Program-made: the position numbers and the translations under genes
Shown here: positions 6,301 through 58,094 of the stretch, in pieces
Position numbering within the stretch: position 1 is the first letter of the stretch
Layout of the letters: every line of letters starts with the position of its first letter
Notes under the pieces: model-generated
The model's database searches: none
What the model was told of the DNA's origin: nothing
Seen by the model: only the letters and a program-made list of their open reading frames with translations
NCBI GenBank assembly: GCA_035437825.1
Contig: DAOMYX010000001.1
Coordinates: forward strand, 113,220 to 177,219
Direction: 5' to 3'
Length of the DNA stretch: 64,000 nt
Origin: Alphaproteobacteria bacterium
Lineage (GTDB): Bacteria; Pseudomonadota; Alphaproteobacteria; Micavibrionales; UBA2020

Positions 6301-7743
6301 TTAATCGCGCCAGAAACGCGGGGCGAGCAGGACGAACATTGTCAAAAATTCCATCCGTCCCAGCAGCATGGCAATAGACAAAATCCATATCGCGTCTGCA
6401 TCCAGCGTGGCGAAAGTGCCGGAAGGGCCGATAATAGGGCCGAGACCCGGGCCGACGTTGCTGACCGCCGAAATCGCGCCCGACACCGCCGTGGTAAAAT
6501 CAAGCCCCGTCAGGTGCAAAAGGATGGTGACGGCCATCCAGGTCAGGATATGCACAAAGAAAAACACGGCAACCGACATCAGCACGTCGTTATCGACGAC
6601 TTTATTGTTGTAATGCACCTGAAACACGCCATGCGGCACGATAAGCCTGCGCACCTGCTGTTGCACCATCGCCCAGAGGATTTGCAGACGGAAGGTCTTG
6701 ATACCGCCAGCGGTTGAGCCTGAACAGGCGCCGAGATACATCGCGACAAAGGCGACGCCTTCGGCCAGCGGCCCCCACTTGCTGTAATCGCCGCTGGCAA
6801 AGCCGCTGGTGGTCATCAGCGTCGTCAGCATGAAAATAGAGCTGCGCACAGCGTCAAAGAAAGTCTTTTGCCCCGTCCAGAGCAGGAAAAACGCCACAAT
6901 CATCGAAAGCGAGAGCAAAATGCCGAAAAAGGCGCGCACCTGCGCATCGTCAACGACGGCGCGGCCGTTGCCTTTGAGCATGCGCACATACTGCACGAAG
7001 GGCAGCGCGCCCAGCCACATGAAAACGATAACAATCCAGTCGATAGTGGGGCTGTTGAAATGACCGATGGAGGCATCGTAATTGGCGAAGCCGCCCGTCG
7101 CCACCGACGTCATGGCGTGGCAGAAAGCGTCGAACAGCGACATGTCGGCTGCAAACAGCAAAAGCGCGCAGGCCAGCGTCAGCACGAAATACAGGGTCAG
7201 GATATAAAGCGCCATTTGCTGGGCACTCGGCAGAACCTTTTCCATGCCGAAGGACTGGGTTTTAAAAATCTGCATCCCCGATACCTGCAGGAGCGGCAGG
7301 ACGGCCAGCGCGACGACCAAGAAGCCGATACCCCCCAGCCATTGCAGCATGGCGCGCCAGAGCAAAATGCCCTTGGGCAGATCATCCAACCCCGTAATCA
7401 CCGTCGCGCCCGTGGTGGTCAGTCCGGACATTGCTTCGAAAAATGCGCGGGTATAGGACAGCTGAATTTCGGCAAAACAGAAAGGCAGCGCGGCGAAGGC
7501 CGTCATAAAAATCCAGCTGATGGACGCAAGGACAAATGTCTGGCGCAGGTTGAGCGCAAAGGATTTTTCGCGGTTTGAAAAAATGAGGGCAAAGCCGACA
7601 AAGGCGGTAATCAGCTGGGCGCTTGCAAAGACTTTCCAATCGCCGCTTTCATGTGCAAGGTCCACAAGCGCGGGCAACAACATCGCGGCGGACAGGATGA
7701 GCAGCAGGATGCCGATGATATAAAAAACGGGTTTGAAGCTCAT
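6301..7743 (-). CDS. trkH: Trk-type potassium uptake protein TrkH
   Basis: 480-aa polytopic protein with four P-loop-like glycine motifs (LTTTGATV, VATGGFAN, MTTSGFASGD, VSNVGPGLGP), typical of the TrkH/KtrB family. Confidence 0.9.
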   Translation of the reverse strand: MSFKPVFYIIGILLLILSAAMLLPALVDLAHESGDWKVFASAQLITAFVGFALIFSNREKSFALNLRQTFVLASISWIFMTAFAALPFCFAEIQLSYTRAFFEAMSGLTTTGATVITGLDDLPKGILLWRAMLQWLGGIGFLVVALAVLPLLQVSGMQIFKTQSFGMEKVLPSAQQMALYILTLYFVLTLACALLLFAADMSLFDAFCHAMTSVATGGFANYDASIGHFNSPTIDWIVIVFMWLGALPFVQYVRMLKGNGRAVVDDAQVRAFFGILLSLSMIVAFFLLWTGQKTFFDAVRSSIFMLTTLMTTSGFASGDYSKWGPLAEGVAFVAMYLGACSGSTAGGIKTFRLQILWAMVQQQVRRLIVPHGVFQVHYNNKVVDNDVLMSVAVFFFVHILTWMAVTILLHLTGLDFTTAVSGAISAVSNVGPGLGPIIGPSGTFATLDADAIWILSIAMLLGRMEFLTMFVLLAPRFWRD

Positions 7744-11779: not shown

Positions 11780-12580
11780 TCAATGCAGGCCGGCGGCATT
11801 ATGCCCCGGCCTGTTTCTTTTTTTGATGGTTGCAGGCGTCATGACGCGGATAGCGGGGGCGATGCCGTTTTGAATGTCCTGATTGTCCAGCCTTTGGCGG
11901 TCGGCTTGCAACAGCGCCATGACCACATCGTCACGGCCGAAAGATTTTGCAAGGCTATAGGCACCGTCGCCGCCTGACGTTTTGCGCGACGGATCACTGC
12001 CTGCAGTGACAAGGGTTTTGAGGGACGAAAAATCCGGCGGGGTCAAGTCCGAGCGGAAACGTTTGACGGCTTTGGTCAGCGGTGTTTCACCGTTATTGCT
12101 TTCGGCGTGAATATCCGCGCCGCATTCTGCCAGCATCCACACAGACTGATGCGCGCCGACGCTTGCGGCATAGCAAAGAGGTGTCCAGCCGTCTTTATCG
12201 CGGGCATTCATGTCTGCCCCGCGCTGGAACAAAACCAAAAGGCATTGGTCGTTGTTATGATGGGCGGCGACATGCGTGCCGGTTTTATCGGCATCTTTGG
12301 CGCTGATAAGCTGCGGTTGGGCATCCAGTAGTTTTTTGAGCGCTTCGGCGTCCCCGAGACGCAGGGCGCGGAAATAGGCGGCTTTGGTGTCGTCGGGCGG
12401 GGGCGGTGCAGAATCCGGCGCGGGGGCGGCTGCGCGCCGGTCTGGCTGTCCCATATCGGGGCGGGCGGGGGGCGCAGCGGCGGCGGCCATATCACGGGCG
12501 TTCTGGCGGAACAGGTCGATGAGACCGCCAAATCCGAAGCCCCGTGTCTCTTTTCCGGCTTTTCCCTGATTTTGTGCCAT
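11780..12580 (-). CDS. Ankyrin-repeat protein with Pro/Ala-rich N-terminal region and basic C-terminal tail
   Basis: ANK repeats (GADMNARDKDGWTPLCYAASVGAHQSVWMLAECGADIHAESNNGETPLTKAV). No signal peptide. C-terminus is ...MTPATIKKRNRPGHNAAGLH. Start taken at ATG MAQNQGKAG. Confidence 0.8.
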   Translation of the reverse strand: MAQNQGKAGKETRGFGFGGLIDLFRQNARDMAAAAAPPARPDMGQPDRRAAAPAPDSAPPPPDDTKAAYFRALRLGDAEALKKLLDAQPQLISAKDADKTGTHVAAHHNNDQCLLVLFQRGADMNARDKDGWTPLCYAASVGAHQSVWMLAECGADIHAESNNGETPLTKAVKRFRSDLTPPDFSSLKTLVTAGSDPSRKTSGGDGAYSLAKSFGRDDVVMALLQADRQRLDNQDIQNGIAPAIRVMTPATIKKRNRPGHNAAGLH

Positions 12581-12785
12581 GTGCATCCTTATGTGACGTG
12601 TGGGGGTATAATAGCACCGCATTTAAGTTATGTCAATTTTTGAGCGCTATCTGGTCATGGTTAAGAAAAATCTTGACTCTGTCATGGCATAAGAATTATG
12701 TTGCCAACCATCTGAAAAGCCGCGCTTTTATGCCGCTATCCCGCTTTATCTAAAAATAAGCAATAATAACAAGGGAGTAATCTAC

Positions 12786-15749: not shown

Positions 15750-16322
15750 TTAATGGCGGCGGCGGATGGCGGGCAGCGATATCAACGGCACATCCTTCGC
15801 CGTGCCGTTGAGGCAGGCGGCGGGGCCTTCGGCTTTGTCGCGGTGTCTTTCGATGGTTTTGGCGAGCGCGTCATGGCCGCGCATCCGCGCGAGAACGGGG
15901 GCGTCATGCCCTTGCTCGCAGCTGGGGAAGGTATCCGCGCCACGCCAGAGCAAAGCTTCGGCAGCTTCTTCGGCATTTTGCCATGCGGCATACATCAGTG
16001 CGGTATAGCCGCGGCTGTTTTGCTTGTCGATGGTGGGGGCTGCCCCGTGCTGCAAAAGCAGTTTGACGATGTCGCTGCGCCGTGCCTGCGCGGCGGCCAT
16101 CAGCGGTGTGTCATCGGCGGCATAGGGCTTATCGTCCGGCTTGAATGGCTCCAGCCAGCAGGCGGCGCCGGCGCGGCTTGTGAGGGTTTCGGTGACTTCA
16201 GCCGTATTTCCGGCGCGGATAGCCTTGAAAAAGGCCTTGCGCTCCTCCGGTGTCGCGCCGGCGGTCTGGTCGAAAGCGGAAGATATGCCGTTTGCCTGTC
16301 CTGCGGTCACAGCCTGCACCAT
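15750..16322 (-). CDS. Ankyrin-repeat protein with basic C-terminal tail
   Basis: TPLMAAAQARRSDIVKLLLQHGAAPTIDKQNSRGYTALMYAAWQNAEEAAEALLWRGAD. No signal peptide. C-terminus is ...VPLISLPAIRRRH. Confidence 0.8.
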   Translation of the reverse strand: MVQAVTAGQANGISSAFDQTAGATPEERKAFFKAIRAGNTAEVTETLTSRAGAACWLEPFKPDDKPYAADDTPLMAAAQARRSDIVKLLLQHGAAPTIDKQNSRGYTALMYAAWQNAEEAAEALLWRGADTFPSCEQGHDAPVLARMRGHDALAKTIERHRDKAEGPAACLNGTAKDVPLISLPAIRRRH

Positions 16323-16527
16323 GTCGTTAAAAATTGAATTTTTTCATAATATTAAGGATTTTTCCTGCTGTCAACCCGCGCTTTGCCATGGGGGCGGAAA
16401 GGGGCATGTGCCTGAAATATGAACAGGTTTTTCCGAAAAACTGCTGGCAAAACGGCAGAGAATCCTTATGATGAGTGACCTAAATAATGACAATTTTTAT
16501 AAAGCCCACAATCCACGAGGATTTCCC

Positions 16528-19500
16528 ATGCGCCGTTCACGCTTTCTTGCCCTGACGAGTGTTTCCCTTGCTGCTGCGATGCTTCTGGCCACGACAGCGG
16601 TACAGGCAACGCAGCCCGCCGCGGTTCAGATGCTCGGCGTTTTGAAGCCGAAAGAGCAATGGAAAGTCGGCACGGTGGACAGCAGCGGCGCGCCTTATTG
16701 CGCCATGGTGGGCAAGTTCGACCAGGCCAGCACGCTGGCATTCGCGCGCAGTGCGGAAGGCTTCGGCTCCCTCGGTATCGAGTTCTATGACGACCTGTTC
16801 AAACCGGGCAAAAAATACGAAGTCACCCTGACCCTCGAAAACCTCGCCCCGCGCACATTCAGCGGGGAGGCAACGACGGCGCGCTCGCTGGTTTTGCAAA
16901 TCGGTGAAGACGATGCGCTCTATGATACTTTCAGCCGCAGCGAAACGTTGCGCGTCTCGACCTCTGCGATTGACGTGCGCTTCGCCATCAACAAATTCGA
17001 CAAGAAGTATAAAGAGCTTGTCACCTGCGCCACCGTTCTTGCGGGCCCGCAGGAGCAGGTAGAGCTGCCGCCCGCCGAAATGGCCGCAGCAGCCAAGGCA
17101 GAAGCCGAAGCCGCCGCCGCTGAAAAAACGGCCAGCGCCGAAAAACCGGCAGCACCGTTTACAAACTTTTTCCAAAGACTGCGCGCCAAGGCAGCGGGGC
17201 AGGAAGAGCCCGCAGCCACCCTTCGGCAGTATTCCGAAAGCGACATTGTCTGGAACGATGAAAAATCCGCCGCAAAAACCGCCGCGGCCGGCAAAAAAAA
17301 ATCTGACGACACCGCAGCCGTAACCCTGCCGCTGCCCAAACCGGGCACGCATAAGGGCGAAACGATTTTGGCGGCCTCCACCACGGCGGCGCCATCTGCT
17401 GTCGCAGCGCCTGCTATCAATGTGGATTCCGCCCCGCTGGCAGAAATGCCCGCGCCCGAAACAATGGATATGCCGCAGGAGCGTAAACTGCTCGCCTCCA
17501 TGGCGGTGACCGGTCATGCGGTCATGGCTGAAAACGTGGGCATGAGCGCGCGCGAGATGGAAAAAATCCAGGCCGCCAAGCTGGAGCGCGATATGGCGCG
17601 CAAGGAACAGGAAATCGCCACGCTGGCCGCCGAAACCACCAAGGCCGCACAGCAGCAGGTGCAGGAATCCGGCCGCCGTCAGGAGGCGATGCTGGTCGAG
17701 GCGAAAAACCTTCAACAGCAAATCGCCACGCTGGAAAAGTCTATGCTTGAAAAAGTGGCGGCGGAGAAAGCGGCTGAAAAATCCGCTGTTGTCGCTGCTG
17801 CTGCGCCTGTGGCAGAAGCTGCCGCCGCGGCTAAACTGGCTGATGATGCGCGCCTTGCAAAACAGCAAGCCGAAGAGCTTGCCAAAAAACAAGCCGATAT
17901 GGACAAGTTGATGGCCGCACGCGAAGCGGAAACCCGCAAGCTGGCCGAAGCCCTGAGCAAGACAGAGGCTGAATTCAACACCCGCGTCGCCACGCTGGAA
18001 AGCGAGCGCAGTGTTTTGCGCGGCCAGCTGGATACGGCTATCACCGAAAGCCGCACCGTCGTGCCTGCGCTTGAATCTGCGAAGCGCGAGGGGGATACGA
18101 AAATCCGTGCGCTCGAAGAACAGTTGGGGGCGGCCGAAGCGGCGCGTGCCTCGTTGCGCCAACAGCTGACGGATGCGGAAACCGCGAACAAGGAACTGGC
18201 TGAAAGCCTGAAGGCGCAGCAAATGGAACGCGCCCGTGCCGAAGAAGCCCTGCGCCGCGCCAGCGAGCTGGAAGCGCAGCTGGCAGCACAAACCCGTCAG
18301 GCAAAAGAGCTGGAACTGGCATTGGCCGCTGAAAAAGCAAAGCCGCCCGTGACGGTAGAAGTGCCCGTGGAAGTGCCTGCCAAGGCCGACCCGAAGCTGG
18401 CCGAAGAAAAGGCGCAGCTTGAATCGCGCCTGAACAACGCTGTCGCCGCGCGCGCGGCCGAGGCAAAACGCCTCGCCGAAGTCGAAGCTCTGCGCAAAGC
18501 AGAAGCAGAGCAACTGGCGAAGATGGAAAACGAACGTAAGGCTGAAGCAGAACGCCTTGCAAATCTGGAGCAGGAGCGTGTAGCAGCTGCCGCCCGCATG
18601 GCAAAGCTGGAGGCGGAGCGTAAGGCCGAAGCGGAGCGTATCGCCAAGCTGGATGCCGCGCGTCAGGCGGAGGAGGCTGCCAAACTGGCACAAATCGAAG
18701 CCGAGCGTATAGCAGAGGCAGAACGTATTGCGAAGCTTGAAGCCGAGCGTAAAGCGGAAGCAGAGCGCGTGGCCAAGCTGGAAGAAGAACGCAAGGCGGA
18801 AGCGCTGCGTATCGCCAAGATTGAAGCGGAGCGCAGAGCAGAAGCCGAACGCGTCGCCAAGATGGAAACCGAGCGTAAAGCGGAAGCAGAGCGCGTGGCC
18901 AAGCTCGAAGAGGAACGCAAGACGGAAGCGCTGCGTATCGCCAAGATTGAAGAAGAGCGTAAAGCAGAAGCCTTGCGCCTCGCCAAGCTGGAAGAAGAAC
19001 GCCGCCTGCAAAGCGTGCGTGCCGCCGAGCTGGCGCAGGAGCGTGAAGCTGCCCGTATGAAAGCGGACGAAGAAATCCGCCGCCTGCGTGAAGAAAAAGC
19101 GGCGCTGGAGCAAAAGCTGGCGCTTGAACAAAAACAAGCTGCCGCGCAAAAGCTGGCGCTGGAGCAAAAACAGGCCGCTGATAAATTTGCCGTGAAAGCG
19201 GCCGCGATGAAAACGGAGCAGGCGGTAGCAGCCTTGCCGGCAGTGACGCTGAAGCCTGCCGCACCTGCGCCCGTAGCCGCTGCGCGTGCCTTGCCGCCGC
19301 TTGAAAAGCGTGAAGTGGCCGCTGTGCCCGCCGTACCGCCGTCACCGGCTGTCGGGGCGCGTAGCCTGTCGCGTCTTGAGCCGGCAGCGGGTGATTCCGA
19401 CCTGACCTCGGGCGGTAACCGTGCCGAGGCTTTCCTTGAGGGCATCATGAAGCATCACCGCCCGCAAGGCACAGCCGCACCCAAAAACGCTGTGAAAACG

Positions 19501-20205
19501 CCCTCCGTGCCTGCGCCTCAGGCGGCGAAAGCTGTACCGCAGGCGGCTATGCCGTCTTCTGTCCGTCCGCAAGTTCCCGTTGTGGAAACGCCGCGTTTGC
19601 GCAATGCGCCTGCGGCTGCGGCGCCCACCGGACGCGCCGTTAGCCTTGAAACCCTGCTGGAGCAATCCGGCGTGCGCGGCGCGGTGTTTCAGCCGATGCA
19701 GCAATCGGGCGCGGAAGCTTCGCGCCAATGGTCTTTGGGTCGTTTGAGCGGTCTTTACGAACAAATGCCCGCCGCAGGCCAGCCCTTCGACCGTCTGACG
19801 CAGGATTATGTCGGGCGTTACCGCGACGATTGCCCGCAGCACCTGACGGTGAAAATGGGCAATCCCGAACAAACGCCCGCGGGTGTGGTTTCCAGCGGCA
19901 CGCTGTCTTGCGCGATGCCGGGCAATGCCTATGAAACCTCGATGTTGTTCGTGCAGTCGGGCAGCGGTTTTGCCGCGATTTTGCATTCCGGCAACCCGTC
20001 CGACGCAGCGCAGGTAAAATCGTTGGGAGATAATATTTTCTACACGCTGTCATCGTCGGCAGGGCTGTCGCCTTTACCCGCAGCAGCGGCAGCGTCCGCC
20101 GCGCCGCAAGCGCAGTATGATGCCCGCCGCACGGTCATGTCGCCGGAGCCGCCGGTTTCCGCTGCGCAGCCGTCTGGTGAATTCAATACGGTTGTTATCG
20201 AATAA
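16528..20205 (+). CDS. Very large secreted coiled-coil protein with conserved N- and C-terminal globular domains
   Basis: ATG at 16528 follows GAGGA. Signal peptide MRRSRFLALTSVSLAAAMLLATTAVQA. The central several hundred residues are A/E/K/R/L-rich heptad-like sequence, including a 14-aa repeat array. The C-terminal domain has two Cys. It is a paralogue of the next gene. Confidence 0.8.
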   Translation: MRRSRFLALTSVSLAAAMLLATTAVQATQPAAVQMLGVLKPKEQWKVGTVDSSGAPYCAMVGKFDQASTLAFARSAEGFGSLGIEFYDDLFKPGKKYEVTLTLENLAPRTFSGEATTARSLVLQIGEDDALYDTFSRSETLRVSTSAIDVRFAINKFDKKYKELVTCATVLAGPQEQVELPPAEMAAAAKAEAEAAAAEKTASAEKPAAPFTNFFQRLRAKAAGQEEPAATLRQYSESDIVWNDEKSAAKTAAAGKKKSDDTAAVTLPLPKPGTHKGETILAASTTAAPSAVAAPAINVDSAPLAEMPAPETMDMPQERKLLASMAVTGHAVMAENVGMSAREMEKIQAAKLERDMARKEQEIATLAAETTKAAQQQVQESGRRQEAMLVEAKNLQQQIATLEKSMLEKVAAEKAAEKSAVVAAAAPVAEAAAAAKLADDARLAKQQAEELAKKQADMDKLMAAREAETRKLAEALSKTEAEFNTRVATLESERSVLRGQLDTAITESRTVVPALESAKREGDTKIRALEEQLGAAEAARASLRQQLTDAETANKELAESLKAQQMERARAEEALRRASELEAQLAAQTRQAKELELALAAEKAKPPVTVEVPVEVPAKADPKLAEEKAQLESRLNNAVAARAAEAKRLAEVEALRKAEAEQLAKMENERKAEAERLANLEQERVAAAARMAKLEAERKAEAERIAKLDAARQAEEAAKLAQIEAERIAEAERIAKLEAERKAEAERVAKLEEERKAEALRIAKIEAERRAEAERVAKMETERKAEAERVAKLEEERKTEALRIAKIEEERKAEALRLAKLEEERRLQSVRAAELAQEREAARMKADEEIRRLREEKAALEQKLALEQKQAAAQKLALEQKQAADKFAVKAAAMKTEQAVAALPAVTLKPAAPAPVAAARALPPLEKREVAAVPAVPPSPAVGARSLSRLEPAAGDSDLTSGGNRAEAFLEGIMKHHRPQGTAAPKNAVKTPSVPAPQAAKAVPQAAMPSSVRPQVPVVETPRLRNAPAAAAPTGRAVSLETLLEQSGVRGAVFQPMQQSGAEASRQWSLGRLSGLYEQMPAAGQPFDRLTQDYVGRYRDDCPQHLTVKMGNPEQTPAGVVSSGTLSCAMPGNAYETSMLFVQSGSGFAAILHSGNPSDAAQVKSLGDNIFYTLSSSAGLSPLPAAAAASAAPQAQYDARRTVMSPEPPVSAAQPSGEFNTVVIE
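18460..19060 (+). repeat. In-frame 42-nt (14-aa) tandem repeat array inside the coiled-coil gene
   Basis: About 13 units of type ERKAEAERVAKLEE / ERKAEALRIAKIEE. Two roughly 90-nt stretches starting at 18745 and 18871 are near-identical (period 126 nt = 3 units). Confidence 0.85.
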
Positions 20206-20238
20206 ACGGGGCGAAGCATAAAGCGCAAAGGTAAAATA

Positions 20239-21681
20239 ATGATGATGCGCCCTGCGATAGTTGCCGCACTTCTGGCTGTCGGTCTTATTTTTACCGCAGC
20301 GCCGCTATCCGCGCAGGCCTTGCGCAGCGAGCCGGGCGAGTGGGTCGTCGGCCCTATCAATATCAAATCTTCAAACGGGCTTTCTTTCTGCTCGATGAAA
20401 ACGCGCTATGCGAACGGGCATTCGCTGGTGGTCGCCAGCGACAGCAAAGGCGCGCGTTCGCTGGCCATCGATTTCGGCAAAAAATCACTGACAGCGGGTT
20501 CGCAATACTACGTTACGTTTTATGTCGGCCCCATCCACCGCACCATGGTGGCGATTGCCGCAACGACCGATGTTTTGATTGCCCAGATGGGCGATGACCG
20601 TGATTTTTTCGACATGATGCGCAGCAAAGATGTGCTGGATGCGGATTTCAACAACCAGCAGCTGAGCTTTTCTCTGAAGGGCGCAGCGCAGGCGCTTGAT
20701 GAACTCGCTACATGCACCAGCGCGCAAGGGCAGGGACAAGCCTATACACAGGCTAAACTGCCGACGCCTGCGCAGGCCGCGGCCAAGGCCGCCGAAGCCA
20801 AAGCTGTCGCGGCGGAGCTGGCGCGCAACGAAGACATGAAAATAAGCGAACAGGCCGTCAGTACCAGCCTTTCCGACGAAATACAGCGCCTGCGCGAAGA
20901 AAACCGCCGCTTGCAGCTGGAAAATCAGGCCGTATCCGCACGGCTGCAAGAGGGAGATTTGGCGGCGGCACAAGCCGAGCTGACGGCGCTGGCGGAGCTG
21001 GAGCGGCGCGAGCGTGCCCTTAAAATCGAAAACGAGCGCCTGCGTGATGAAACCGACAGCATGCTGGCGGTGCAGGAAAGCCTTACCCCGTCAACCCGCA
21101 CGCCCGGCACGGCGGCGGAAGCGGTTTCGGTGCGTTTCCAAACCCCGCCACCGCAGGCTATCCAGCCTGCCGCAGGCCACCCGGCGGCGCAGGCCATGGA
21201 TGATGCCGTGATGTCACCTGCCCCCGAAGCTATAGAAGCGGCGGTGGTGATGCCGAAAGCCCAAGCCCCCAAACCGATAGCGGCACGCACTTTGGCGTGG
21301 CTGGCGCATGACGGCGCAGCGGCGGAAACGGCAGGCGGTATTTCCGTATGGCGGTGGGTGAGTGGTAACAGTCTGGTTGCTGTGCAGCCTTGGCCCGCGG
21401 CGGGGACGTCAGCTGTTGCCGAATATTTGTCCGTCCTTGAAGCGCGCTGCGGCGGCGACTTCGCACAGCAGGCGGCGGCGCCTGTTGCTGTATCCGGCAA
21501 CGTGAATGTTGTGACGGCGGAAGTGGCCTGCATCGATGCCGACAATCAGGCGGCCGCGGTGCTGGCGTTTATATCTGACGGTTCGGAAATGGCGGTGGTG
21601 ACGTTTGAAACAGGGGCGGAGACGATTTCTGATGCCCTTGGTCAGCGGCAGTCGCTTTTGGCACGGGTTTCCGGCGAATAA
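20239..21681 (+). CDS. Secreted coiled-coil protein, short paralogue of 16528..20205
   Basis: Signal peptide MMMRPAIVAALLAVGLIFTAAPLSAQA. By eye the N-domain (GEWVVGP...LSFCSMKT...LSFSLKGAAQALDELATC) and C-domain (YLSVLEARCGGDF...AEVACID...AAVLAFISDGSEMAVV) align with the ends of the upstream giant protein. Confidence 0.75.
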   Translation: MMMRPAIVAALLAVGLIFTAAPLSAQALRSEPGEWVVGPINIKSSNGLSFCSMKTRYANGHSLVVASDSKGARSLAIDFGKKSLTAGSQYYVTFYVGPIHRTMVAIAATTDVLIAQMGDDRDFFDMMRSKDVLDADFNNQQLSFSLKGAAQALDELATCTSAQGQGQAYTQAKLPTPAQAAAKAAEAKAVAAELARNEDMKISEQAVSTSLSDEIQRLREENRRLQLENQAVSARLQEGDLAAAQAELTALAELERRERALKIENERLRDETDSMLAVQESLTPSTRTPGTAAEAVSVRFQTPPPQAIQPAAGHPAAQAMDDAVMSPAPEAIEAAVVMPKAQAPKPIAARTLAWLAHDGAAAETAGGISVWRWVSGNSLVAVQPWPAAGTSAVAEYLSVLEARCGGDFAQQAAAPVAVSGNVNVVTAEVACIDADNQAAAVLAFISDGSEMAVVTFETGAETISDALGQRQSLLARVSGE

Positions 21682-50147: not shown

Positions 50148-50729
50148 ATGGCCGACAACAAGAATACTGACGATAAAAACACGGAAAAGAACGGCAAGCC
50201 GAAAAAGGACGCCGACCCCTTGGTTATGCTTGAAAAAGAGCGCAACCGCCTGCAGGAGCGCTACGACACCCTGACCGGCAAAGCGCGGGGTGAAGTGGGC
50301 GATGTCGGTTTCTGGGGTGCGGTCGGTGCGCTGGCGCTGATGGCGGACTGGACGTTTACGGGCGGACTTGGCACGGCTTTCGCGGCCTGGAGCGCGGGCG
50401 AATACGTCATGTACGCGCGCCGTGCGCGTGAAGTGGGTAAAGAGCTGAAGGTCGTCAAATCGCGCATTCAGGACATGCAGCAGGCGCGGTTCGAAGCGCA
50501 AATCCAGCAAATGAAACAAGCCCCGCAAAAAACGCAGGGCGCTGTACCCGATACAAGCTTGAAAGATGAATTCTCCCCTGCGGCGCAGGCAGAAATTGAA
50601 GCCCTGCGCAGCAAACTCGCGACGCTGGAAAAGCAGGTCGGGCAAATGCAGGAAGACAAAGCGGGCGGGCTTGATAAACCGAAATTCAAAAAGCCCTTCG
50701 GCAAAAAACCGGACGAGCCGAAATCCTGA
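50148..50729 (+). CDS. Hypothetical membrane/coiled-coil protein with Lys/Pro-rich termini
   Basis: 193 aa. Central hydrophobic hairpin (VGFWGAVGALALMADWTFTGGLGTAFAAW), a C-terminal coiled coil, and tail GGLDKPKFKKPFGKKPDEPKS. Confidence 0.55.
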   Translation: MADNKNTDDKNTEKNGKPKKDADPLVMLEKERNRLQERYDTLTGKARGEVGDVGFWGAVGALALMADWTFTGGLGTAFAAWSAGEYVMYARRAREVGKELKVVKSRIQDMQQARFEAQIQQMKQAPQKTQGAVPDTSLKDEFSPAAQAEIEALRSKLATLEKQVGQMQEDKAGGLDKPKFKKPFGKKPDEPKS

Positions 50730-50732
50730 TTA

Positions 50733-51413
50733 TCAGGCTTTACCCAGCAAATCCTTGTAAGAGGCCGCGCGCGGCGGTGTGACGGGGCGGGCATTTGCCG
50801 CGTCTTTTTGCTGCTGCACGCCTGCCTTCAAAATCTCGGCAAGGCTGAAATTCTCATGCATGCGTGCAATGTCGTAGGCCGTCTGACCTGCGTGGTTGTG
50901 CTGTTCCAAATCCGCGCCGCGGCGGATAAGAATTTGCGCGATTTCGCGCCGTCCCAACGCCGCCGCCCACATCAGCGCGGAGCGGTCGAGCATATTCAGC
51001 TGGTCCATCGCCGCGTTTTTATCGGTAAGGTTACGCACCGTTTTCACGCTGCCTGAAATGGTGGCGAGGATAAGGGGCGTGTTGCCTTCGGAATCTTTGG
51101 CGTTTACATCGGCGCCTGCCTGTATCAACAGGTCGGCGATATATTCCTGCCCTTTGCGGGCGGCAATCAACAGGGGCGTGCTGTCATGGGCGTTGCGTAT
51201 TTCAAGCGCCGCACCGCGCGCGATAAGGTCGGTAATTTTTTGGCTATTGGGCGTGTTTTGGGCTACTTCCAGAAGCAGCGACATGCCGAGCGCTTGCTGC
51301 TCCGGCGTATAACTGCGCTGCGGCGCGGTTTGTTGCTGCGCTGCGGGGGCGGCGGCAGTTTCACCGCGCTGGCCGCTGACGGCCTGATTGAAACGTGACC
51401 CTTGTTGGCTCAT
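50733..51413 (-). CDS. Ankyrin-repeat protein
   Basis: ATG at 51413 (MSQQGSRFNQ) is preceded by GAGGA; the ORF track starts 2 codons earlier at TTG. ANK repeats: DSTPLLIAARKGQEYIADLLIQAGADVNAKDSEGNTPLILATISG. Confidence 0.8.
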   Translation of the reverse strand: MSQQGSRFNQAVSGQRGETAAAPAAQQQTAPQRSYTPEQQALGMSLLLEVAQNTPNSQKITDLIARGAALEIRNAHDSTPLLIAARKGQEYIADLLIQAGADVNAKDSEGNTPLILATISGSVKTVRNLTDKNAAMDQLNMLDRSALMWAAALGRREIAQILIRRGADLEQHNHAGQTAYDIARMHENFSLAEILKAGVQQQKDAANARPVTPPRAASYKDLLGKA

Positions 51414-51472
51414 AGTCAAAATCCTCTGAAATCAGATACTAAGGAACCGGAACGGTATTTAAATTATCCAAA

Positions 51473-51501
51473 ACACTATCAAATCTCTAATATAATGTCA
51501 A
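51473..51501 (-). promoter_or_regulatory. Predicted promoter of ankyrin gene 50733..51413
   Basis: Minus strand reads TTGACA - 17 nt - TAGTGT inside an AT-rich intergenic region. Confidence 0.35.
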
Positions 51502-51620
51502 GTTTTAGTATAATAGGGTAATTTTATAATAAATTTTTTGACTTTATTTCAAAGGGTTATGGCGGCTTTGCCGCCGCGCTAAATGAAAATGATTATCAAC
51601 TGATTGGCGAGGCATCATGC

Positions 51621-52262
51621 CTAACGATTCAGGCCCGCATTTTTGGCGCGGCGTTTCAGCGCCGGCATGTGCAGCGGCGCAACGTCTTTTTCCAGCGGGA
51701 CGCCAGCGGCCAGTGCGGCATCAAACGCCGCCTTCGCCGCGCGGCGCTGTGTGCCGAGCGATTGGATATCATTTGCGATATGCGGCTTGCCGTTATCTAT
51801 GGCGAAATCCGCGGCGGTTTTTCCGTTCGGGCTTTTGATGTCGGTGCGCGCCCCCGCATTGACCAGCAGCGCCACAACGTCGCGCGCCCCCAGATTGGCC
51901 GCCCACATCAGGGGCGTCATGCCCTTGAAGCCCGTGTCGTCAAGGCGTGCTTTGTGTTTTATCAGCAGCGCGGCGGCGTCCGCGTCTTTGAGCAGTACCG
52001 ACATCATCAAGGCTGTCGCGCCGTTCTGGTTGCGTGCTTCGGTATTGGCGCCGGCCTCCAGCAGCGGGCGGATGGCGTCGCCGCAGTGGCTGGACGAACA
52101 GGCCACAAGCAGCGGCGTGCGTTTTTGAATGTCATCGCCTGTTTGCTCAAGGTCCGCACCTGCGTCAATCAGGCGTTTGATTTCGGCCATATCTGGCGCA
52201 GCGCCGCTTATTTCCTTCAGCAGCGCAAGTCCGTCGCGGATATGTGCTGCAAGGGTTCCCAT
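51621..52262 (-). CDS. Ankyrin-repeat protein with basic C-terminal tail
   Basis: Start taken at MGTLAAHIRDGL, whose ATG overlaps the stop of the upstream 66-aa ORF (TGATG). ANK repeats: RTPLLVACSSSHCGDAIRPLLEAGANTEARNQNGATALMMSV. C-terminus is ...APLHMPALKRRAKNAGLNR. Confidence 0.75.
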   Translation of the reverse strand: MGTLAAHIRDGLALLKEISGAAPDMAEIKRLIDAGADLEQTGDDIQKRTPLLVACSSSHCGDAIRPLLEAGANTEARNQNGATALMMSVLLKDADAAALLIKHKARLDDTGFKGMTPLMWAANLGARDVVALLVNAGARTDIKSPNGKTAADFAIDNGKPHIANDIQSLGTQRRAAKAAFDAALAAGVPLEKDVAPLHMPALKRRAKNAGLNR

Positions 52263-52462
52263 CAGCGCGCGGGACTTTCGCCGCCGCGGACGCGCTTTTT
52301 GATGGCGGGCGGCTGAAGTACGGCGATGCTGTGCTCTTCGCCATCGTTGTTTTTTGCAGGTGTTACCGCAACCGCTGCAGCTGGCGCGGATGGCGACGTT
52401 TTCTTGGGCGCAGGTGGAATGTAACCATCCCACATTTCTTTCAACTTGTATTTGCCCAGCAT
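52262..52462 (-). CDS. Small (66 aa) Pro/Ala-rich protein with basic C-terminal tail
   Basis: MLGKYKLKEMWDGYIPPAPKK...IAVLQPPAIKKRVRGGESPAR. AAGGA lies upstream of its ATG. It is coupled to the ankyrin gene downstream and sits 21 nt after the 87-aa ORF. Confidence 0.5.
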   Translation of the reverse strand: MLGKYKLKEMWDGYIPPAPKKTSPSAPAAAVAVTPAKNNDGEEHSIAVLQPPAIKKRVRGGESPAR

Positions 52463-52483
52463 GGCGTGTTCCTTTTATGCGGA

Positions 52484-52747
52484 TTATTTGGGGCCTTGCG
52501 GGCCGCGTTTTTTGACGTTGATGGGGGGCAGCAGGTTGATGTTTGCGGGTTCCTGCTGCTTCATTTTAAAATCGGCGGGCGCATGTTCGTTCCAGATTTC
52601 GCCTGTGGGGTCGATGCTTTTTTGCAGGCCGCGCAAACGGCTATGCGCTTCGGAACCGCGGCGCCAGACACTGTGGTCGTCGCTGTAGTCGTAGTACCAG
52701 TCATGCGATTTAAGCAGCTTGATATAATTTTCCTGTTCAGGCGTCAT
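52484..52747 (-). CDS. Small (87 aa) protein with basic C-terminal tail
   Basis: MTPEQENYIKLLKSHDWYYDYSDDHSVWRRGSEAHSRLRGLQKSIDPTGEIWNEH...NINLLPPINVKKRGPQGPK. GAAAGG lies upstream of its ATG, and codon usage is host-like. Confidence 0.55.
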   Translation of the reverse strand: MTPEQENYIKLLKSHDWYYDYSDDHSVWRRGSEAHSRLRGLQKSIDPTGEIWNEHAPADFKMKQQEPANINLLPPINVKKRGPQGPK

Positions 52748-52805: not shown

Positions 52806-52828
52806 ATCTTGACATAATATGTCAAGAT
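52806..52828. promoter_or_regulatory. Perfect 10-bp inverted repeat (3-nt spacer) carrying TTGACA on both arms
   Basis: ATCTTGACATaatATGTCAAGAT, located between the stop of the HTH gene (52830) and the 87-aa gene start (52747). Confidence 0.4.
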
Positions 52829-52829
52829 G

Positions 52830-53108
52830 CTATTCGGCTTTATCCGATAATTGCGCGGCTATCCAGGTCAAGACATGCGGCCGGACAGTCGGCTGGGGCA
52901 GGTTTTTAAGGGTCGTCCAGCGGTCAACCGCGCCCTTGGACAGGCCGAAGCCCGCGCGAAAGGCCGTTTCATCAAGCCCAAAGCGGGTCAGGGCGGTATA
53001 GACAGAATCTGCAAAATCGCTGTCGCTGATGTTTTGCGCAGCGGCAAGGGTGGCCAGCCTTCTTAAAAAAGCTTCCTTTTCCAGCGATTTAACATTTGAT
53101 GGCGACAT
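52830..53108 (-). CDS. Small putative helix-turn-helix DNA-binding protein
   Basis: 92 aa from the ATG at 53108, which is the C-terminal part of the 353-aa track ORF (the rest is antisense shadow of the GNAT-like gene). FGLSKGAVDRWTTLKNLPQP resembles an XRE/Cro-type HTH. Confidence 0.5.
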   Translation of the reverse strand: MSPSNVKSLEKEAFLRRLATLAAAQNISDSDFADSVYTALTRFGLDETAFRAGFGLSKGAVDRWTTLKNLPQPTVRPHVLTWIAAQLSDKAE

Positions 53109-56412: not shown

Positions 56413-57267
56413 ATGGGCTGGATAAAAACCCCTGAAGAAAAAGCGGCAGCACGTCAAAAACGTCTCGATAAGGGGCTGTTCAAGGACGATACGCGCAAGG
56501 TCATCGCCGCGCTTGATGCGGGCGCCAATCCGAACGCGCGCAACGAATACGGCTATAGCGCTATTTCCTATCAGGCCTCCAGCCGCCGCAATGAAGCGGT
56601 GAAGGTACTGCTGGCGCGCGGCGCAGACCCGAACGGCAAAACTGATAACGATTATTCCGCCCTGATGGCCGCGGCGTCGCATAATGATGTGGAGCTGGCA
56701 AAGCTTTTGTGCGACCACGGCGCGCATATTAATGCGCAAAGCCACGATGGCCGCACGCCGCTGCACCATGCCGCCTATTGGGGGCGTGGAAAAATCATCC
56801 AGTTCCTGCTGTCGCAGGGGGCGGATACCACATTGCGCGATGGGCGCATGAACAGCGCGGCCGATATCGCGGCCAAAGAAAACTATCCGGGCGTTGCGGC
56901 GCTGCTGCGCGGGGAATTGGACGAAGTGCCCAAAGAAGATGCTGCGCCGGCCGCCGGCGTATGGCATTTGACGGCGCCCGATGAAATTGCGCGTATTGAT
57001 GACAAGCCGGCTATCGGCTATCGCATTACCGAGATTTTTAACTTTGGTGCAGGGGTATATAACCGCATCGCGCGTAACCTTTCGACCGACCACGAAAGCC
57101 AGTCTATGCGGCTGTTCGATGAAATGCACGGCAGTCCGATATTGCAGCAGGCAGCAGATGCCTTTGTGCGTTTGGGCGGCGATGCTGAAAACGCTGCTGC
57201 CGCCCAATCTTTGACGGCCAAAAAACCCGCAGGCCTGACGCTGCACCCAAGCGGCAGGAGCGCCTGA
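56413..57267 (+). CDS. Ankyrin-repeat protein with conserved unknown C-terminal domain (tandem copy 1)
   Basis: ANK repeats: GANPNARNEYGYSAISYQASSRRNEAVKVLLARGADPNGKTDNDYSALMAAASHNDVELAKLLCDHGAHINAQSHDGRTPLHHAAYWG. C-domain: WHLTAPDEIARIDDKPAIGYRITEIFNFGAG... Confidence 0.8.
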   Translation: MGWIKTPEEKAAARQKRLDKGLFKDDTRKVIAALDAGANPNARNEYGYSAISYQASSRRNEAVKVLLARGADPNGKTDNDYSALMAAASHNDVELAKLLCDHGAHINAQSHDGRTPLHHAAYWGRGKIIQFLLSQGADTTLRDGRMNSAADIAAKENYPGVAALLRGELDEVPKEDAAPAAGVWHLTAPDEIARIDDKPAIGYRITEIFNFGAGVYNRIARNLSTDHESQSMRLFDEMHGSPILQQAADAFVRLGGDAENAAAAQSLTAKKPAGLTLHPSGRSA

Positions 57268-58094
57268 TGGGTATGTTTTTCGACAGCAAACAGGAAAAAC
57301 TCGACCGCCGTGTTTACAAGGCGATTGACGCCAAGAGCGTTGCCAAGCTGCAAGAGGCGCTCGACGCCGGCGGCGCGCTTGAAGCCAACGGCTATTGGGG
57401 CTGGGTTTATCATGCGGTGAATGCCCGTTTTGACGACGGCGTTTCGGTTCTGCTGGAACGCGGTGCCCCCGTGGATGCGCGCGGGCCTTACGGCTATACG
57501 CCGCTGCGTATCGCGGCCACCAGCGGTCACCGCGATATCGCCAATGTTTTGCTTGCTGCTGGGGCGGATATTCACGCCGTTGATGAAACGGGCTGGACAC
57601 CGCTGCACGGTGCCGCGCATGCGGGCAAGATGGACATGATTGTGTTCCTGCTGGAACATGGCGCGGATATGCAGGCGCGGGATAAACACATGAATACCCC
57701 TGCCGATATTGCGGCCAAGCAATACCCGCGCATTGCCGAATACCTGTGGGAAAAAATGGGCGTGGGGCAGGAAAAGCAGGAAACGGCGCCGCTGGAGCCC
57801 GGCTGGCATCTGACAGGCGATGATGAAATCGCCCATGTGTCCGACAAACCGGCGATTGGCTACCGCTTTACGGATGTTTTTAATTTCAGCGCCAAAATCC
57901 ACACACGGATTGCCGAAAACACCCGGACGCATGCCGAAAGCAGCAGCGTGAAAACATTCGCGGATTTGGAAGATAGCGCGCTGCTGGAGCAAGCTTTCGA
58001 AGCCTTCCGCGCACGCGGCGGCAAGGCGGATGATTATACGCTCGACAAGCCTAAAGCGCAGCCGGGGTTGCACCGGGGCGGCCCTCAGCCCTAA
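57267..58094 (+). CDS. Ankyrin-repeat protein with conserved unknown C-terminal domain (tandem copy 2)
   Basis: Its start overlaps the upstream stop (TGATG). ANK repeats: GYTPLRIAATSGHRDIANVLLAAGADIHAVDETGWTPLHGAAHAGKMDMIVFLLEHGADMQ. C-domain: WHLTGDDEIAHVSDKPAIGYRFTDVFNFSAK... Confidence 0.8.
   Translation: MGMFFDSKQEKLDRRVYKAIDAKSVAKLQEALDAGGALEANGYWGWVYHAVNARFDDGVSVLLERGAPVDARGPYGYTPLRIAATSGHRDIANVLLAAGADIHAVDETGWTPLHGAAHAGKMDMIVFLLEHGADMQARDKHMNTPADIAAKQYPRIAEYLWEKMGVGQEKQETAPLEPGWHLTGDDEIAHVSDKPAIGYRFTDVFNFSAKIHTRIAENTRTHAESSSVKTFADLEDSALLEQAFEAFRARGGKADDYTLDKPKAQPGLHRGGPQP

Follow-up and report, generated by a model that had tools for sequence, protein, structure and literature searches.

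A short basic tail shared by two small proteins and three ankyrin-repeat proteins of a Micavibrio-like bacterium: a candidate docking peptide that might serve in sorting

Results

Five proteins end in one tail motif

Five proteins encoded in a 64,000-nucleotide stretch of contig DAOMYX010000001.1 (assembly GCA_035437825.1; the whole stretch is called the window hereafter) carry the same short basic motif at their C-termini. Three of them, the small proteins p87 and p66 and the ankyrin-repeat protein ank213, are encoded in one operon, and the ankyrin-repeat proteins ank266 and ank190 are encoded elsewhere in the window (Table 1). The tail is almost certainly a functional conserved motif, and it is probably read by a common protein partner. 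An earlier note, made from the letters of the window, had described the tails, and they read as given there; two unlinked ankyrin genes do end likewise. The regular expression of that note, P-[PA]-x(0,1)-[ILV]-[KR]-[KR]-R, fails for p87 (PP-IN-VKKR), in which two spacer residues are needed.

Since the regular expression had been defined post hoc, 15 tails (the five families and their orthologues) were aligned and used for profiles. They fall into one ungapped register, [IV]-x2-[LMI]-x(1-2)-P-x(1-2)-[ILV]-[KRHQ]-[KR]-R, with a drifting proline (alignment A5); hydrophobic residues occupy positions i, i+3 and i+8, and the basic triplet comes next. The motif lies 1-12 residues from the C-terminus in the five proteins. 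The ankyrin repeats of ank213, ank266 and ank190 were assigned by Pfam Ank_2 (E 1e-14 to 6e-24; 55-85 bits against a cutoff of 27.3). Note that the open reading frame (ORF) of ank266 extends over 280 amino acids (11780-12622, minus strand); the start was assigned to Met15 because the orthologue alignment begins at M15, a TTGACA-17-TATTAT promoter and an AGGA site lie upstream, and the NCBI call is of 266 amino acids.

Table 1. Positions in the window of the tail carriers, their tail motifs and the features upstream of the operon
Feature	Position	Strand	Remarks
p87 (87 aa)	52484..52747	-	ORF; predicted three-helix body (residues 1-60) and disordered tail
p87 tail motif	52505..52540	-	I70-R81, INLLPPINVKKR
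p66 (66 aa)	52262..52462	-	ORF; NCBI hypothetical protein HRI75505.1
p66 tail motif	52292..52327	-	I46-R57, IAVLQPPAIKKR
ank213 (213 aa, ankyrin-repeat protein)	51621..52262	-	ORF and Pfam
ank213 tail motif	51648..51683	-	V194-R205, VAPLHMPALKRR
ank266 (ankyrin protein)	11780..12580	-	Pfam; NCBI HRI75461.1, 266 aa
ank266 tail motif	11816..11851	-	IRVMTPATIKKR
ank190 (ankyrin protein)	15750..16322	-	Pfam; TTGACA/TATTAT promoter upstream
ank190 tail motif	15756..15791	-	V178-R189, VPLISLPAIRRR; one residue before the C-terminus
Perfect palindrome, 11+1+11 (23 bp)	52806..52828	.	ATCTTGACATA-T-TATGTCAAGAT; in overlap with the operon promoter at its -35 box, TTGACA
p92 (92 aa)	52830..53108	-	Immediately upstream of the palindrome

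Enrichment at C-termini

Genes were called with a self-trained codon model (68 genes). The enrichment of the motif at C-termini, for which the earlier note had asked, was found in the window: five of the 68 proteins carry it against 0.006-0.012 expected, and five was never reached in composition-preserving shuffles of the whole proteins or of the last 30 residues. All matches in called proteins lie 12 residues or less from the C-terminus, and a six-frame scan found the tail solely at the C-termini of the five proteins, together with two matches in a non-coding frame.

When profiles were built with one family left out, the omitted member ranked above all 63 non-members every time, and a profile from the ankyrin tails alone recovered p66 (22.5 bits, E 2.6e-7) and p87 (E 0.014). 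The full tail profile gave 19-40 bits for the five carriers among 515 six-frame ORFs of the window (the next ORF had 6.8 bits), and the best score in 650 kb of unrelated control loci (4,718 ORFs) was 4.7 bits. Over the window and twelve related loci, every profile match in a called gene ends 0-4 residues before the C-terminus; the three remaining matches are internal and fall in uncalled ORFs or in a gene relic. Extra carriers were sought in approximately 150 kb of related loci, and only orthologues of the same five families were found.

Conservation in orthologues

Alignment of the orthologues, which had been proposed as a check of the tail, showed that the motif is kept to about 50% identity, and that linkers and N-terminal regions vary. 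Orthologues of p87 with 70-99% identity retain LLPP[IMV]N[VI]KKRG, which is relaxed to PIKLKK[PS]G in those with 54-59% identity; p87 homologues of 61-68 amino acids end right after the body, and M. aeruginosavorus has no p87. In the ank213 orthologues (ten clusters, P0019-P0028, 213-216 amino acids, 51-92% identity), PL.[LM]P.[LI]KRR is kept and the residues beyond the triplet are free. In ank266, the residues P256, I258, V260, P263, I266, K268, R269 and N270 are invariant among eight orthologues of 49-62% identity (alignment A3), of which the N-terminal 70 residues are highly variable and barely alignable. For ank190, the search of the representative library was swamped by giant ankyrin proteins and two orthologues were usable: P0103, with VLRPPTVHKRGGG, and P0111, which is degenerate. 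To judge from these alignments, the tail is under purifying selection.

A relic of the 3' end of ank190 (..KDGNVLHPPTVQKRGG..), without an ankyrin domain or a proper frame, was found at the syntenic position of the related locus L109 (approximately 6640-6700, plus strand). This indicates that the ank190 gene was lost in that lineage; 3 kb from the relic, the ank266 orthologue is preserved with an intact tail.

The p87-p66-ank213 operon

The three minus-strand ORFs of the operon are as the earlier note had them, including the 21-nt gap between p87 and p66 and the TGATG overlap of the p66 stop with the ank213 start. The smallest of the products, p66, begins with a conserved 22-mer (MLGKYKLKEMWDGYIPPAPKKT), continues with a linker that varies and closes with the tail; it is probably disordered along its whole length. 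Its gene has a ribosome-binding site (AAGGA, 8 nt upstream). In comparison with the related locus L009, the N-terminal 22 residues and the tail are identical and the linker differs, and the ratio of nonsynonymous to synonymous substitution rates is 0.09 for p66, 0.07 for p87 and 0.11 for a neighbouring ankyrin gene. We regard p66 as a real gene because this ratio is like those of its neighbours and because both motifs are identical around a varying linker.

The p66 gene is restricted to the closest species, namely the window species and two neighbours (L009, L024-L026). A first metagenome scan gave no match, and repetition with an alignment-based search gave three loci. In clusters P0223, P0225 and P0230, some assemblies call a p66 of 85 amino acids from an upstream ATG that overlaps the tail-coding region of p87 in another frame; this call is probably a gene-caller artefact, the start MLGKYK with the AAGGA site upstream being the conserved one.

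The composition of the operon differs among the related loci. L012-L015 have no p66, and p87 there overlaps the ankyrin gene directly; L011 has no ank213; in L009, ank213 is cut to 86 amino acids. The tail of p87 is retained in all of them. In the shortened ank213 orthologue of L009 (10467-10727), an in-frame deletion within the gene has fused ..NQNGA to ..LNR, with loss of the tail motif; the adjoining p87 and p66 have intact tails.

Predicted disorder, charge and export signals

The AlphaFold2 model of ank213 (mean predicted local distance difference test score, pLDDT, 88.5) has a confident ankyrin solenoid followed by a long helix, after which residues 186-213 have no secondary structure and a pLDDT of 56 or less (203-213, below 50). 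In the model of p87, the body (residues 1-60) forms three helices at a pLDDT of approximately 80, and the tail is at 53-59. The models thus place the motif in a predicted disordered C-terminal extension. The monomer model of ank213 does not dock the tail in the groove of its own repeats, and such self-docking was set aside.

That the carriers have no N-terminal signal peptide, as the earlier note had said, was supported by a simple test of hydropathy rather than by SignalP: within the first 40 residues, the highest value over any 10 residues is 1.58 or less in all carriers and 2.1 or more in the obvious signal or membrane proteins of the window. The net charge of the last 20 residues is +3 to +5 in all five, and that of the bodies is -3 to +1.

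The earlier note had offered positively charged C-termini as a signal for a VirB/D4-type type IV secretion system (T4SS), which would be recognised by the VirD4 coupling protein. The charge agrees with this, as do the acidic to neutral bodies and the terminal, predicted disordered position of the tail. In other Alphaproteobacteria, ankyrin proteins are among the classical substrates of T4SS, and the known VirB/D4 substrates (Agrobacterium VirE2 and VirF, Bartonella Beps and Anaplasma AnkA) resemble the proteins described here in having unstructured positive C-termini and no Sec signal, and often in being ankyrin cargo. Positive charge is, however, all that fits. The Agrobacterium consensus is R-x7-R-x-R-x-R, and this pattern is present in none of the five tails. 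VirB/D4 signals are patterns of charge, whereas the tails have a ladder of hydrophobic and proline residues that is foreign to such a signal and more tightly conserved than it would lead one to expect. No T4SS gene was found in the window or in the approximately 150 kb of related loci, and the cultured relative Micavibrio aeruginosavorus ARL-13 has type I (T1SS) and type II (T2SS) secretion systems with no evidence of type III or type IV systems (PMC3189940). We consider a VirB/D4 signal quite improbable.

Alternatively, the basic, Gly/Pro-rich tails might be non-specific electrostatic anchors on acidic membranes or nucleic acid, in the manner of AT-hooks or polybasic segments. G/P/R-rich residues do follow the KKR, KRR or RRR triplet (KKRGPQGP, KKRNRPG, KRRPRRP), several other proteins of the window have basic ends, and the neighbouring genes have a phage or helix-turn-helix (HTH) flavour. 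It is the hydrophobic and proline ladder upstream of the charges that is conserved, however, and conservation is lowest beyond the triplet; the fixed basic residues number three, the GRP core of the AT-hook is absent (RNRP in place of RGRP), and the profile parts the five cleanly from the other basic-tailed proteins of the window. An electrostatic anchor is accordingly improbable.

Origin of the bodies and modularity of the tail

The body of p87 has the core HDWYYDYSDDHxxW, with 13 invariant positions. p87 matches phrog_16661 (E 2e-5), and its family is present in 142 IMG/VR contigs. In fold comparisons, small Caudovirales proteins that are uncharacterised came out on top, at modest significance: the best in BFVD is 44% identical (template modelling score 0.82, E 2.5e-3), none reaches E 0.001 or less, and the PDB gave no fold match for the body. 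The tail was found in none of 37 distinct phage homologues of the body (0/37), and we infer from these tailless versions that it was added in the Micavibrio-like lineage. A tailless homologue of p87 (66 amino acids) is encoded in L022 (9306-10201) directly downstream of a CI-like repressor (HTH and C-terminal domain) and opposite a Cro-like gene, on a prophage-like contig with AAA_24, DUF669, integrase, holin and GH108 endolysin genes. This context suggests that the p87 family is a phage early or immunity-region gene.

With their tails removed, the tailed ankyrins are mutually the weakest matches among the six ankyrins of the window (28-33 bits), and each is nearer to an untailed paralogue (40-60 bits). 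The tail-coding segments have neither extended nucleotide identity nor a common downstream signal. Recent duplication, gene conversion and an overlapping DNA motif were rejected on these grounds. Because the DNA shows no trace of recent copying and there is no congruence with ankyrin similarity, the tail is better seen as a module than as an inherited part of one family. The idea of a short portable C-terminal module on dissimilar proteins without signal peptides, put forward in the earlier note, is thus supported by the orthologues, the phage homologues and the relatedness of the ankyrins. The bodies were also called unrelated there; they are dissimilar, but the word is too strong, since three of them are ankyrin-repeat proteins and p66 may partly copy p87. 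BLASTP gave no match between the last two, and Smith-Waterman alignment was marginal (P=0.03 with the tail, 0.15 without it), which weakly suggests that p66 may have arisen by partial copying of the C-terminal half of p87.

Such a copy would be in keeping with the view that the tails are alike through chance, low complexity or simple common descent, as would the look of homology between the tails of ank190 and ank213 (KDV.PL...PA.[KR]RR) and the post hoc origin of the motif. The shuffles, the leave-one-out profiles and the 650 kb of controls all speak against chance; further arguments against this view are that the tail is conserved across orthologues, absent from all phage homologues of p87 and not congruent with ankyrin-domain similarity. 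This explanation is largely refuted, and we give it hardly any credence.

Source organism

Exact copies of the proteins were found in bioreactor-sludge assemblies and in metagenome-assembled genomes (MAGs) labelled Alphaproteobacteria bacterium, including a 349-kb contig that encodes HRI75504-HRI75506, and the same operon was found on the 2.56-Mb contig Ga0226835_1000001. Relatives of p87 occur in species-representative genomes labelled uncultured Micavibrio sp., Micavibrio sp., Alphaproteobacteria bacterium and Bdellovibrionales bacterium, and the related records are MAGs that carry the label Micavibrio or Alphaproteobacteria and come from sludge or from environmental sampling. The window is ordinary core chromosome (RF2, PutA, the ATP synthase F0 operon, TolQR-like genes and an ECF sigma factor; approximately 57% GC). 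The source organism is a Micavibrio-like predator. Note that the labels are inconsistent: NCBI taxonomy places Micavibrio in Bdellovibrionota, and the related MAGs are labelled Alphaproteobacteria, Rhodospirillaceae or Bdellovibrionales. Known Micavibrio are obligate epibiotic predators, the prey of which are bacteria (PMC3189940, PMC12428579), and both the epibiotic predator-prey junction and its molecular determinants were described as uncharacterised in a 2025 review (PMC12428579).

The prey bears on the other suggestion of the earlier note, that the tails fit eukaryotic nuclear localisation signals (NLS). On this view, the carriers would be effectors aimed at a protist host. A monopartite NLS is likewise a short basic cluster, often with a preceding proline, and two of the five tails fit K-K/R-x-K/R: KRVR in p66 and KRNR in ank266, the latter invariant in its orthologues. 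The proline before the basic cluster recalls the context of the c-Myc and SV40 signals. The density of six ankyrin genes per 64 kb is typical of eukaryote-associated bacteria, and genes for patatin and EF-hand proteins adjoin the window. However, p87 (VKKRGP) and ank190 (IRRRH) fail the consensus, and the ank213 orthologues fit it sporadically. Binding to importin needs no hydrophobic ladder, and a strict C-terminal position is not a property of an NLS. No eukaryotic host is indicated, and the lineage is labelled Micavibrio. Nuclear import is thus very improbable as the function of the tail.

Promoters and neighbouring genes

Each of the three transcription units of the carriers is preceded by a near-consensus sigma-70 promoter. 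That of the operon is overlapped by a perfect palindrome (Table 1), and all of the Micavibrio-like loci L009-L015 and L026 keep the arrangement TTGAC.n3-4.TATGTCAA ahead of p87. A half-site (CTTGACATTAT, 51492-51502) lies in the promoter of the next ankyrin gene; together with the palindrome, it suggests a shared operator and a regulon. Every related locus has the p92 gene, with 60-90% identity, on the upstream side of p87. By inspection only, p92 has an HTH-like segment (GLSKGAVDRWTTLKNLPQ) that resembles the Cro-like gene beside the phage p87 homologue of L022, and it is a candidate repressor that may act on the operon through the palindrome. Pfam, NCBIfam and PHROGs gave no match for p66, p92, p193 or a neighbour of 243 amino acids.

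The ankyrin gene at 50733-51419 (minus strand) has a leader of approximately 75 nt (51420-51500) between its TTGACA promoter and the start codon. The leader is markedly conserved across L009-L015 and L026 (GATAATTTAAATACCGTT..GGTT..TTAGT.TCTGATTTCAGAGG) and could be a regulatory RNA element; Rfam found one tRNA and nothing else in the window.

Three of the six ankyrin genes of the window have the tail, and the other three (50733-51419, approximately 56413-57267 and 57267-58094) have other tails. The tandem ankyrins at 56413-57267 and 57267-58094 (plus strand) represent a second conserved class of basic C-terminal tail, with orthologues in L009-L015; their ends read ..[LF]xx[KD]K[PH]..(P)GL.R.GG or LTAKKPAGLT. 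To this class also belongs a membrane or coiled-coil protein without ankyrin repeats (50148-50729, plus strand), which ends in GLDKPKFKKPFGKKP. The string LDKPK is common to an ankyrin and an unrelated protein of 193 amino acids. A third class of ankyrins has the conserved end SYKDLLGK[AV].

Divergent from ank190, the region 16468-21681 (plus strand) encodes a protein of 1245 amino acids, conserved in a distant relative (1261 amino acids; L109, 2267-6052), and a signal-peptide protein of 480 amino acids, with no significant match in Pfam or NCBIfam. Just beyond the left end of the window lie genes for a patatin-like phospholipase (522 amino acids) and for a protein of 206 amino acids with faint EF-hand matches (L027, 13495-15760; L028, 6517-8782). 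These two genes and the six ankyrin genes lend the region a flavour of eukaryote-like domains.

Discussion

The tail appears to be a short linear motif specific to one clade, phi-x-x-phi-x-P-x-x-phi-[KR]-[KR]-R, seated at the tip of a disordered C-terminal extension. In Micavibrio-like predatory bacteria, it would have been added to four or more bodies that are distant relatives or unrelated: a domesticated small phage protein, a tiny disordered protein and three ankyrins that are not closest paralogues. The motif is strictly C-terminal, disordered, conserved position by position and spread as a module; these features lead us to propose a docking peptide with one receptor, which would read the hydrophobic and proline ladder together with the basic triplet and treat all carriers alike. 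The likeliest job of such a receptor would be sorting, in which the tail would direct effector-like cytoplasmic cargo without signal peptides into a route of export or delivery where predator and prey meet. A slight lean to sorting comes from the effector-like nature of the carriers (ankyrin repeats and a phage early-type protein) and from the obligate predation of the lineage. That the receptor sorts the carriers for export or delivery toward the prey is a hypothesis that we regard as possible and somewhat doubtful; taken as a whole, a docking peptide with a common receptor that acts as a sorting or export tag is a tentative proposal, which may turn out right nearly as readily as wrong.

Several points weigh against this proposal. 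Neither a receptor nor a secretion apparatus was found in the window and the related loci (approximately 150 kb), so that the search for secretion genes suggested by the earlier note came out empty there. The cultured relative has T1SS and T2SS only, and the tails are unlike T1SS signals. Such signals are C-terminal, about 60 amino acids long, rich in LDAVTSIF, poor in KHPMWC, and acidic (PMC4315096), whereas the C-termini considered here are basic, with 34-54% LDAVTSIF and 18-32% KHPMWC, although this criterion is itself weak. The three ankyrins that are not carriers have different and conserved tails. In the most distant clade, the motif is degraded to KKP and KTIRLKR (L014 and L015). The enrichment was determined over 64 kb and the syntenic loci, not over a whole genome. 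Finally, a purely intracellular role fits equally well, since such tight positional conservation suits docking motifs better than the known, fuzzy C-terminal secretion signals.

For such an intracellular role, the tail would be a docking or regulatory motif without export, which would tether the carriers to a hub in the cytoplasm. Examples of such a hub are chaperones such as DnaK, adaptors or proteases of the AAA+ class, the groove of an ankyrin domain and an organiser at the pole used for feeding; p66 would be a bivalent adaptor or a competitor. The tight pattern (i, i+3, i+8 and the basic triplet) is typical of peptide-protein docking. The tiny p66 has two short conserved motifs joined by a linker that varies, and AlphaFold2 models the homologous tails of p87 and ank213 as disordered. 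Secretion systems are absent from the neighbourhood, and the conserved operator-like palindrome with the adjacent HTH-like gene suggests a regulated intracellular function. As for an ankyrin groove, AlphaFold2 leaves the tail of ank213 undocked at a pLDDT below 56, and ank213 is not the sole receptor, because p87 keeps its tail where ank213 is missing (L011) or truncated (L009). Nor does an intracellular role explain why the tail is restricted to effector-like bodies. We take docking without export to be on the unlikely side.

Among known systems, the rickettsial ankyrins secreted by T1SS (Orientia Anks and Ehrlichia Ank200) are also alphaproteobacterial ankyrins with an uncleaved C-terminal signal (PMC4315096, PMC3417381), and Micavibrio encodes a T1SS (PMC3189940); the rickettsial signals, however, are of approximately 60 residues, poorly conserved and usually acidic, in contrast to the sharply conserved basic Pro/Lys-rich 12-mer of the tails. 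Bd3460, the self-protection protein of Bdellovibrio bacteriovorus, is likewise a small ankyrin protein of a predator in a compact operon. It has a signal peptide, is periplasmic and is paired with a DD-endopeptidase, in a synteny that is absent from epibiotic predators (PMC4686830). The carriers, in contrast, have no signal peptide, a basic tail and no adjoining enzyme.

Conserved peptides on flexible linkers that bring unrelated proteins to one receptor are a parallel to the proposed docking peptide. Terminal docking peptides include the C-terminal peptide of FtsZ (DIPAFLR[KR]), the beta-clamp-binding motifs and the PxLPxI/L ligands of the ANKRA2 and RFXANK ankyrin grooves. LPAIRRR of the tail recalls IPAFLRR of FtsZ; however, the FtsZ peptide is without the upstream hydrophobic positions and the final Arg, and the registers mismatch. 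Mimicry of FtsZ, a clamp-binding motif, an AT-hook and proline-rich antimicrobial peptides were all set aside because of mismatched registers or key residues. The tail profile against all PDB sequences gave a sole match, to a dynein regulatory protein (E 0.15), and nothing relevant. The tail is also without a match in Pfam, NCBIfam, PHROGs or the searched literature, in agreement with the statement of the earlier note that no family defined by it was known.

A more speculative extension, which we think rather unlikely in this full form, is that the tail is the address tag of an undescribed delivery route of epibiotic predators. It would mark cargo made in the cytoplasm for passage across the predator-prey junction, the cargo including ankyrins and a domesticated phage host-takeover protein, and p66 would be a tail-bearing regulator or pilot. 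A sharply defined and searchable 12-residue tag on effector-like proteins would permit a genome-wide list of the cargo, and its peptide could be used to fish for the receptor; the reuse of phage anti-host proteins by predators would then become testable. If the tag is intracellular, it would represent a new docking motif, together with its regulon, in a poorly studied lineage.

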